Assembly: GCA_963790345.1 (NCBI GenBank)
Contig: CAWBOD010000006.1
Coordinates: 23,573 to 87,572 of the forward strand
Length of the DNA stretch: 64,000 bases
Reading direction: 5' to 3'
Origin: an uncultured Acidimicrobiia bacterium
GTDB lineage: Bacteria; Actinomycetota; Acidimicrobiia; Spongiisociales; ZC4RG35
Part shown: positions 35,066 to 35,212 of the stretch, piece by piece
Layout: each line of letters opens with the position of its first letter
How positions within the stretch are numbered: position 1 is the first letter of the stretch
Notes under the pieces: model-generated
The model's database searches: none
Told to the model about the DNA's origin: nothing
What the model saw: the letters and a program-made list of their open reading frames with translations, nothing else
Made by a program: the position numbers and the translations under genes

Positions 35066-35212
35066 CTCAGTAGGCAGCTATGAGTAGGCGAGCTCTGCAG
35101 TAGTCAGCCATCAGTAAGCAGTATGCAGCAAGAGACGAAGGATCTCTGTCCGATGACTGCCCACTGCCTACTGCCTACTGCCTACTGCCTACTGAGAGCT
35201 GCCTACTGCCTC
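35066..35212. repeat. Composite GTAGGCAG / CTGCCTACT repeat element (locus C, largest copy)
   Basis: Left module: four GTAGGCAG-like units at about 12-bp spacing (cagtaggcagct, gagtaggcgagc, cagtagtcagcc, cagtaagcagta). Right module: six tandem CTGCCTACT units (35161-35212) overlapping the prfB stop. Confidence 0.8.

Follow-up and report, generated by a model that had tools for sequence, protein, structure and literature searches.

Since 1990 it has been known that bacteria contain heptamer repeats; the short tandemly repeated repetitive (STRR) sequences of heterocystous cyanobacteria were reportedly described in that year by Mazel et al. STRR units are CCCCAGT, TTGGTCA and CAACAGT, and no function has been established for bacterial heptamer repeats. 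Here we describe arrays of the heptamer TAGGCAG and its complement CTGCCTA in a 64-kb stretch (the window) of an Acidimicrobiia metagenome-assembled genome (MAG), which is the host of this repeat family, and compare them with arrays in other genomes. The window arrays are very probably heptanucleotide simple sequence repeat (SSR) arrays of the STRR or long simple sequence repeat (LSSR) kind. A preliminary description of the window did not place the unit in a described REP or MITE family; heptanucleotide arrays such as these have already been described (PMC4692102; PMC4679880), and TAGGCAG is a further member of this known kind, with placement as found by Rehm et al. A literature search for the tandem TAGGCAG unit returned no bacterial context, its matches being unrelated eukaryotic work.

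The closest described repeats are GGGAATC of Xanthomonas and GGGGA(C/T)T of Nostoc, 7-nt units that are repeated in tandem and are strongly intergenic (Rehm et al., 2015; PMC4692102). Their G-rich strand lies on the coding side, 0-50 nt from the stop codon or overlapping it, and ahead of start codons it is found on the non-coding strand. Few of the repeats lie in divergent spacers, some of them form inverted pairs, and the sister species Xcc and Xac share spacers in which length and sequence differ (PMC4692102). Transcripts start or stop at these repeats more often than at controls, and the function is still to be elucidated (PMC4692102). TAGGCAG shares with them the 7-nt unit, the G-rich coding strand at the stop, the depletion of divergent spacers, the inverted pairs and the turnover. 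It is unlike them in having GG runs only, in containing a stop triplet often used as the gene stop, and in occurring in an Acidimicrobiia MAG with a unit common to many phyla. Formation of a G-quadruplex (G4) or i-motif, the focus of that paper (PMC4692102), is unlikely for TAGGCAG. In cyanobacteria, an STRR hairpin between hupS and hupL has been proposed to stabilize the transcript, to couple translation or to terminate transcription (PMC2670836). Both the STRR of heterocystous cyanobacteria and TAGGCAG are heptamer arrays with hairpins between co-directional genes, but they differ in unit and phylum. The heptamer TAACTGA has been found in marine Beggiatoaceae, cyanobacteria and Bacteroidetes, mostly just upstream of starts and as direct repeats, with only one indirect repeat in BOGUAY (MacGregor, 2015; PMC4679880). 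TAACTGA and TAGGCAG are both intergenic heptamer SSRs that are scattered over unrelated phyla by no obvious route of transfer and are also present in viral contigs, whereas TAGGCAG is anchored at stops, usually with an inverted arm. As summarized in PMC4679880, Mrázek et al. (2007) found that heptamers outnumbered all other long SSRs in most of the genomes examined, and proposed polymerase slippage as the cause.

In the window, CTGCCTACT is present in 14 copies versus 0.11 expected and GTAGGCAG in 20 copies versus 0.82 expected, and neither observed count was reached in any of 100 shuffles. The dispersed repeat family noticed in the preliminary description is thus genuine, and its two modules are, as was said there, mutual reverse complements. 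All clustered copies lie at the four loci that it named; two isolated copies of GTAGGCAG (1420 and 11690) are within chance expectation. Tandem Repeats Finder (TRF) gives the repeat unit as CTGCCTA, complement TAGGCAG, with a period of 7 at 2217-2249 (locus 1, 4.7 copies), 31597-31625 (locus 2, 4.1 copies), 35156-35211 (locus 3, 8.0 copies) and 61716-61730 (locus 4, 2.1 copies); the tandem 9-mers reported before follow each other at 7-nt intervals, so that neighbors share 2 nt. Nor is there a uniform spacing of 12-13 bp in the spaced arm, where the units are 19 and 11-12 nt apart at locus 1, 20 nt at locus 2 and 14 nt at locus 3 (TRF period 14, 4.0 copies at 35069-35125). The core units are exact at these varying spacings (11-21 nt) with unrelated intervening sequence, and the arrays have perfect units at their centre and degenerate ones at their edges, which points to slippage-driven SSR behavior, unlike that of a transposable unit. 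As in other heptanucleotide SSR or STRR arrays, at least three head-to-tail copies of the 7-nt unit are found (loci 1-3), and the heptamer arrays are over-represented and almost exclusively non-coding. No Rfam 15 family overlaps any array in the window at the gathering threshold, the matches there being only the transfer-messenger RNA (tmRNA), tRNAs and two c-di-GMP-II riboswitches.

Loci 1-3 consist of two inverted arms, while locus 4 has the CTGCCTA arm alone, so the two-part architecture proposed for all four holds for three of them. The flanking genes ndk, a folC-like Mur ligase gene, smpB, ftsE and prfB (PCRF and RF-1 domains) were identified by Pfam. Homologues of SecA assign the window to the Acidimicrobiia (Actinomycetota), and an identical SecA is encoded on a contig of 143,988 nt. 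Locus 3 lies between prfB and ftsE on the minus strand. Its stop-proximal arm (35156-35212) is made of eight heptamers, which read GAGGCAG TAGGCAG CTCTCAG (TAGGCAG)x4 TGGGCAG in sense, and the prfB stop TAG (35203-35205) is the TAG of the second. A spacer with the hairpin apex and a small internal stem in the minimum free energy structure (35126-35155) leads to the distal arm (35069-35125), in which four units of the CTGCCTAC type with a 14-nt period, in sense CTGCTTAC, CTGACTAC, TCGCCTAC and CTGCCTAC, pair with the tandem arm; on its 3' side follow a conserved leader of ~95 nt and then ftsE (ATG at 34967). Locus 1, also on the minus strand, begins 13 nt past the TGA (2263-2265) that ends the folC-like gene, with a stop-proximal arm of (TAGGCAG)x4 and degenerate units (2211-2249), which pairs with three spaced CTGCCTA(C) units of the distal arm (2127-2164); the last CTGCCTAC stops 11 nt short of the ndk ATG (2113-2115). 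At locus 2 (minus strand), the stop-proximal arm (31597-31626) reads GAAGGCA GTAATCA GTAGGCA GTAGGCA G in sense and contains the smpB stop TAA (31617-31619) in heptamer register, and the distal arm (31560-31587), with the units CTGCCTAC and CCGCCTAC in sense, is separated by 18 nt from the 5' end (31541) of tmRNA (31189-31541, minus strand). Locus 4 (61716-61743, plus strand) reads CTGCCTA CTGCCTA cgtgg CTGCCTA CT in sense, has no inverted partner arm by repeat positions or folding, and ends 1 nt before the ATG (61745) of a gene that Pfam identifies as a biotin carboxylase fused to biotin carboxyl carrier protein (BCCP), not accA as had been suggested; the preceding gene encodes a carboxyltransferase (Pfam). 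The clusters therefore lie between genes or overlap coding sequence by no more than a stop codon, the stops of prfB and smpB being the places where the view of purely intergenic copies fails. The long imperfect hairpins that had been envisaged at each locus are found at loci 1 (-82.8 kcal/mol, z -8.0) and 3 (-81 kcal/mol, z -6.8; both single strand), where either strand can form one (-68 to -83 kcal/mol), but the fold of locus 2 is weak (-30 kcal/mol, z -1.6), and at locus 4 there is no second arm to pair with. Frameshifts are seen in ndk (1849-2115), which leaves and regains frame within ~40 codons, in the folC-like gene (2263-3673), which is split into three open reading frames (ORFs), and in ftsE (34479-34967), which encodes 162 aa versus 244 aa in the related contig L120. 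They suggest indel errors of long-read assembly, or pseudogenes, so that the numbers of heptamers given for the window could deviate slightly from the true ones.

At all three composite loci the sense strand reads stop codon, TAGGCAG arm, CTGCCTA arm, next gene, and at locus 4 CTGCCTA stands in sense directly upstream of a plus-strand ATG. The orientation relative to transcription, which the preliminary description regarded as not fixed, is consistent at four of four loci, and the same order is found elsewhere, in a set of more than 170 loci from other genomes and viral contigs. An exact scan for (CTGCCTA)3 in GTDB representative genomes, one per species, yielded at least 119 stretches. Among the matches listed, the hosts are MAGs of Pyrinomonadaceae, Blastocatellia, Vicinamibacterales, Thermoguttaceae and other Planctomycetota, Flavobacteriaceae, Saprospiraceae, Chloroflexia, Gemmatimonadales and Acidimicrobiia, together with a Phormidesmis cyanobacterium. 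Acidobacteriota, Planctomycetota, Bacteroidota and Alphaproteobacteria are all represented, and at least eight phyla in total. Cultured isolates with the array include Mesorhizobium loti DSM 2626 and Maribacter polysiphoniae DSM 23514, and a complete Vibrio chromosome is also among the matches; Aurantibacter aestuarii KCTC 32269, Terripilifer ovatus and Vibrio sp. HN007 are further names in the list of carriers. The arrays are therefore neither an assembly artefact nor specific to a lineage. When at least two TAGGCAG-like units were sought within 200 nt of a (CTGCCTA)3 array, they were found upstream in 54 of 116 cases and downstream in one among the matches listed, and upstream in 49 of 69 and downstream in none in viral contigs. 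Since an inverted repeat reads alike on both strands, this G-first arm order is a real asymmetry. Four other C-rich heptamers are likewise arranged G-first in 16 cases and C-first in none, TAACTGA shows little polarity (9 versus 5), and ordinary array-free hairpins at the same loci weakly share the polarity (67 versus 42, p = 0.02). A rare exception to the arm order occurs in the contig L150 (3950-4041), where (CCACGTT)4.7 lies directly past the prfB stop and is followed by (GGCGTGA)4.1.

The viral contigs of IMG/VR contain 55 stretches with (CTGCCTA)3 (L162-L216), usually with the G-arm before the C-arm. Triple-unit stretches of two permuted units of the same composition, CCTGTCA and CTCGCTA, number 6 and 7 in these contigs, those of CAGCCTA 13, of CTCCCTA 37 and of TAACTGA 107; CTGCCTA is a favored heptamer, not the sole one. 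Arrays of the TAGGCAG family are also carried by phage or prophage DNA.

Gene boundaries in the 119 loci were called with a simple codon-model gene caller, which was checked on the Pfam-confirmed genes of the window and on independent calls for L120. By these boundaries, 209 of 211 family arrays in other genomes are intergenic or at a gene edge. TAGGCAG arrays in sense adjoin stops (n = 114, median -2 nt; opposite strand n = 38, median 38 nt), and upstream of starts CTGCCTA in sense is found in 40 cases (median 13 nt) versus 13 for TAGGCAG; other period-7 arrays at the same loci behave likewise, with 43 versus 16 after stops and 31 versus 11 before starts. Arrays of a single type in co-directional spacers lie nearer the stop in 33 of 38 cases when G-rich in sense (median 3.5 nt) and show little preference when C-rich (17 near the start versus 12 near the stop). 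Arrays occur in 42% of the spacers between convergent genes, in 22% of those between co-directional genes and in 11% of the divergent ones, a frequency that follows the number of gene 3' ends per spacer. As with the repeats of Rehm et al., the G-rich strand is thus in sense at stops, the C-rich strand precedes starts and divergent spacers are depleted. The stop is TAG in 65 of 95 genes preceding an array versus 160 of 671 other genes, and the array's own TAG often serves as the gene stop. Stop triplets in every frame are a property of TAGGCAG and not what generally gives rise to the polarity. Seeding by, or selection for, stop triplets in all three frames was considered as a general cause of the arrays and rejected, because other heptamers contain 55 stop triplets versus 50.6 expected from letter permutations and because an array of CGTGGTA, which has no stop triplet, occupies the prfB-ftsE spacer of the related contig L125. 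In all 52 two-armed composites of other genomes the arms fold onto each other, with a median of -60 kcal/mol for 115 nt and 92% of the shorter arm paired.

The arrays turn over at a given spacer. Across five related contigs with an identical SmpB protein and 95-97% identity of smpB DNA, the stop-proximal arm between smpB and ssrA has 1+1 (L120), 1+2 (L121) or 3 (L123) perfect units versus 2 in the window, and in L122 and L124 it has none, a short AGTAGGAG...CTCCTACT hairpin being kept; unit spacing also differs among the strains, and L123 has a different downstream neighbor. The prfB-ftsE spacer is even more variable. In L120, which shares 98% identity over the compared 120-residue ends of RF2 and FtsE and ~80% DNA identity overall, the family is present, but the spaced arm is stop-proximal and the tandem arm distal. 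No array is present there in relatives whose prfB is 83-88% identical; their spacers measure 62-142 nt versus 235 nt in the window. L125, whose FtsX is 96% identical, carries (CGTGGTA)3.4 from 3 nt past the prfB stop and (TACCACG)4 before the ftsE leader (1-230), so that architecture and place are as in the window and the heptamer is swapped. In more distant relatives, the arrays at this spacer are built of GTGGTAA and TACCACC (L146) or of CCACGTT and then GGCGTGA (L150). Copy number and sequence thus vary at one spacer between close relatives, as is typical of SSR and STRR arrays, and comparison of these sequences suggests that replication slippage adds and removes units in steps of 7 nt and that units are copied between arms. 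The ~95-nt leader upstream of ftsE is itself conserved (34968-35065 in the window, 7030-7128 in L120 and 232-329 in L125), and its GGTAnCC motif can be recognized in relatives down to ~83% prfB identity; no convincing consensus structure of the leader was obtained from the three sequences. The contig L125 begins at the prfB end, 20 nt before the array, and both L120 and L125 have contig ends in or near arrays, as expected if these repeats break short-read assemblies.

With a confidence somewhat below even, we read the array as a repeat-built stem-loop, lacking a U-tract, by which the upstream transcript is marked, paused or stabilized at its 3' end and the spacer is insulated on both sides. 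The G-rich arm at, inside or just past the stop and the C-rich arm before the next gene fold together into an imperfect hairpin of 100-150 nt. Such a stem-loop behind the coding region would be a barrier that terminates or pauses transcription or stabilizes the upstream message at its 3' end, and that would insulate the spacer from transcription entering from either side, in which it would be comparable to the REP elements of enterobacteria. Arrays of this sort are gained, lost, resized and swapped between relatives, probably through slippage and arm-to-arm copying, and any single locus, like any particular unit sequence, is dispensable by the strain comparison. The transcript-end reading is favored because the 5' arm is anchored on the stop codon, because array frequency tracks gene 3' ends per spacer, because strains without arrays retain a hairpin at the place, because the arm order is that of a bidirectional terminator (A-tract, stem, T-tract) and because array-free hairpins weakly share this order. 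Of the roles considered, only those in which the arms are non-equivalent explain the near-absence of C-first hairpins, for example through a pyrimidine-RNA:purine-DNA hybrid beneath the 3' arm, which would be the weaker kind. Related systems are bidirectional intrinsic terminators and the U-tract-less ("I-shaped") hairpins reported behind actinobacterial genes. Like them, the arrays provide a hairpin behind a gene with a purine 5' arm and a pyrimidine 3' arm and are enriched in convergent spacers; unlike them, they have no A-tract or U-tract, and their stems are far longer and built of repeats.

Several points weigh against this reading. By the features of an intrinsic terminator, the arrays have the GC-rich hairpin and lack the U-tract. 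None of the window arrays was called as a terminator-like site, and by nearest-neighbor data the hybrid under CUGCCUA would still be far stronger than that under a U-tract. A canonical hairpin with a T-run was found in the spacer of 5 of 52 composites versus 45 of 281 control spacers; these counts, and the lack of any such case in the window, rule out a canonical terminator between the arms, an impression gained from a few loci. The window loci lie within co-directional gene runs, which are probable operons, and the closeness of the smpB array to the tmRNA 5' end makes a strong terminator there awkward. A test of G·U pairs over co-directional composites gave no signature at the RNA level, sense being more stable in 15 and antisense in 13 (p = 0.37). 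Moreover, presence or absence and unit replacement are seen among near-identical strains, and the gene boundaries in the 119 loci rest on the simple gene caller. As for the cause of the arm order, cyanobacteria, to our knowledge, lack Rho. Avoidance of Rho, with C-rich RNA exposed first, is therefore kept as a possibility only, given that the G-rich placement rule is also reported in Nostoc (PMC4692102).

The main alternative is that the arrays are a non-functional by-product, which we regard as possible though doubtful: slippage arrays would gather in the least-constrained DNA behind stops, and their polarity would reflect tolerance or origin, for example a filter against C-rich untranslated RNA that is harmful behind a stop. 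Arrays that come, go or change their unit at one spacer among close relatives, the depletion of divergent, promoter-bearing spacers, the lack of a G·U sense bias and the perfect middles and degenerate edges of the arrays are all in line with this, as are the slippage explanation of the heptamer excess by Mrázek et al., in the form relayed in PMC4679880, and the fact that no regulatory role was found by Rehm et al. (PMC4692102). However, a near-absolute arm order (54:1, 49:0 and 16:0) needs a strong filter of unspecified nature, an origin from stop-codon seeds fails to account for the polarity since stop triplets are not in excess in other heptamers, array-free strains keep a hairpin at the same place between smpB and ssrA, and CTGCCTA is ~8 times commoner than its permuted controls. 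The last of these points, together with recurrence of the unit across phyla, would fit arrays of binding sites for a sequence-specific protein that recognizes (G)TAGGCAG in RNA (HutP-, CsrA-, S1- or Csp-like) or in DNA, as do the exact core units set 11-21 nt apart in unrelated sequence and the period-7 UAG of the sense RNA. HutP itself reads UAG triplets every 7 nt. MacGregor has made a proposal of this type for TAACTGA (PMC4679880). Nevertheless, binding by such a protein is improbable, for the same spacer is occupied in L125 by the UAG-free CGTGGTA and in others by GTGGTAA or CCACGTT, a second family in the window, GTGCGTN, has the same architecture, the polarity is common to many different heptamers, and no candidate turned up among the window proteins scanned, which cover part of the window.

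The symmetry of the two strands bears on whether the arrays act on DNA independently of transcription, as a cruciform or as protein sites in two orientations. The preliminary description argued for a DNA-level role from variable orientation, and this premise is wrong. The arrangement is nonetheless strand-symmetric, fold stability is equal in sense and antisense over 28 composites, and hairpins can form on both strands at loci 1 and 3; but single-type arrays are placed by the gene end, sense-G arrays lying next to the stop in most cases, and a cruciform would be indifferent to arm order, yet C-first pairs are almost never found, which leaves this explanation with little probability. Least probable of all is a mobile element of the repetitive extragenic palindromic (REP), REPIN or miniature inverted-repeat transposable element (MITE) type, moved by a REP-associated tyrosine transposase (RAYT) or another transposase. 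The REP sequences and bacterial interspersed mosaic elements (BIMEs) of enterobacteria are imperfect palindromes of 20-40 nt, which are lineage-specific, dispersed in many copies, linked to RAYT (Y1) transposases and often located in operons just past stops, and REP stem-loops protect upstream mRNA and can affect translation termination. TAGGCAG arrays resemble them in being dispersed, intergenic and able to form stem-loops near stops; presence or absence between strains, the pairing GTAG...CTAC ends of the unit and the GTAG head of GTAGGCAG, similar to what we take to be the GT[AG]G head of REPs, also recall a mobile element. In contrast, the TAGGCAG arms are slippage arrays without fixed length, the loci differ by whole 7-nt units and in their spacers, there are no terminal inverted repeats apart from the array, and the unit is shared by at least eight phyla. 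Scanning of 19 window proteins revealed no transposase adjoining the loci within these 64 kb of the genome. Comparison with the REP/BIME/REPIN palindrome fails on the unit of 7-8 nt and on arm length and spacing that vary by locus and strain, and comparison with MITEs fails on filled and empty spacers, which differ by replaced sequence of variable length without border duplication. The target-site duplications expected in orthologous spacers of relatives were accordingly absent at the borders, whereas the statement that the arrays belong to no described REP or MITE family has held.

Other heptamer pairs in the window have a similar build. A sister family, GTGCGTN, shows the same architecture by TRF and folding at 41055-41132 (minus strand), where a G-rich arm TGTGCGT TGTGCGT AGTGGGT GGTGCGT starts 8 nt past the ahcY stop (41140-41142) and a complementary ACGCACA/CGCACTA arm lies upstream of the next ORF; the ahcY spacer of L120 has a related but rebuilt array. 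At 55205-55275, between the convergent genes for F420 ligase (plus) and UDP-glucose dehydrogenase (minus), a GGTGCGT-type arm of the sister family precedes an ACGCAAA-type one (-35.9 kcal/mol, z -2.9). A possible array pair detected by TRF between tRNA-Arg and tRNA-Gly (10150-10265) consists of an GTGGCTGA-type arm and ACCCACC x4.3, G-rich on the left and C-rich on the right, in the same order as the other pairs. The tmRNA tag frame ends in GCTGCCTAA (Ala-Ala-stop; 31420-31426, minus strand), which contains CTGCCTA and is found as the tag end in several relatives too. Sense UAGGCAG arrays are therefore complementary to the tag end (GCUGCCUAA); this complementarity is probably due to chance, and a resemblance to 16S positions 338-355 was also treated as chance. 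A small ORF of ~84 aa (61149-61403, plus strand) between the carboxyltransferase and biotin carboxylase genes may encode the small epsilon subunit of an actinobacterial acyl-CoA carboxylase, and contains a short AGACGCC x2.7 heptamer run. The aptamers of two c-di-GMP-II-GAG riboswitches (4745-4830 and 6123-6208, both minus; 61.7 and 56.5 bits) precede the ORFs 3711-4715 and 5173-6216, which have no Pfam match and contain tandem repeats of 27 bp x 8.3 (3990-4214) and 24 bp x 13 (5406-5709), respectively.

In practical terms, heptamer arrays of this kind break short-read assemblies and can shift annotated stop codons. The window adds an Acidimicrobiia example whose unit is an implausible G-quadruplex former, which weakens the G4 account of placement in Xanthomonas and Nostoc, and comparison with its relatives indicates that one heptamer can take the place of another at a fixed spacer with the architecture unchanged. 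The G-first arm order holds across heptamers and phyla, and any mechanism must account for it. Although we think it unlikely, this unit-independent rule, with its anchor on the stop codon, seen in at least eight phyla and in viral contigs, might reflect a general mechanism not yet recognized, possibly a widespread U-tract-independent, direction-symmetric form of transcript-end formation or insulation through repeat hairpins in which purine precedes pyrimidine, or an activity devoted to building or reading heptamer arrays. If true, such a mechanism would explain why TAGGCAG, TAGGGAG and TAACTGA recur in unrelated bacteria.

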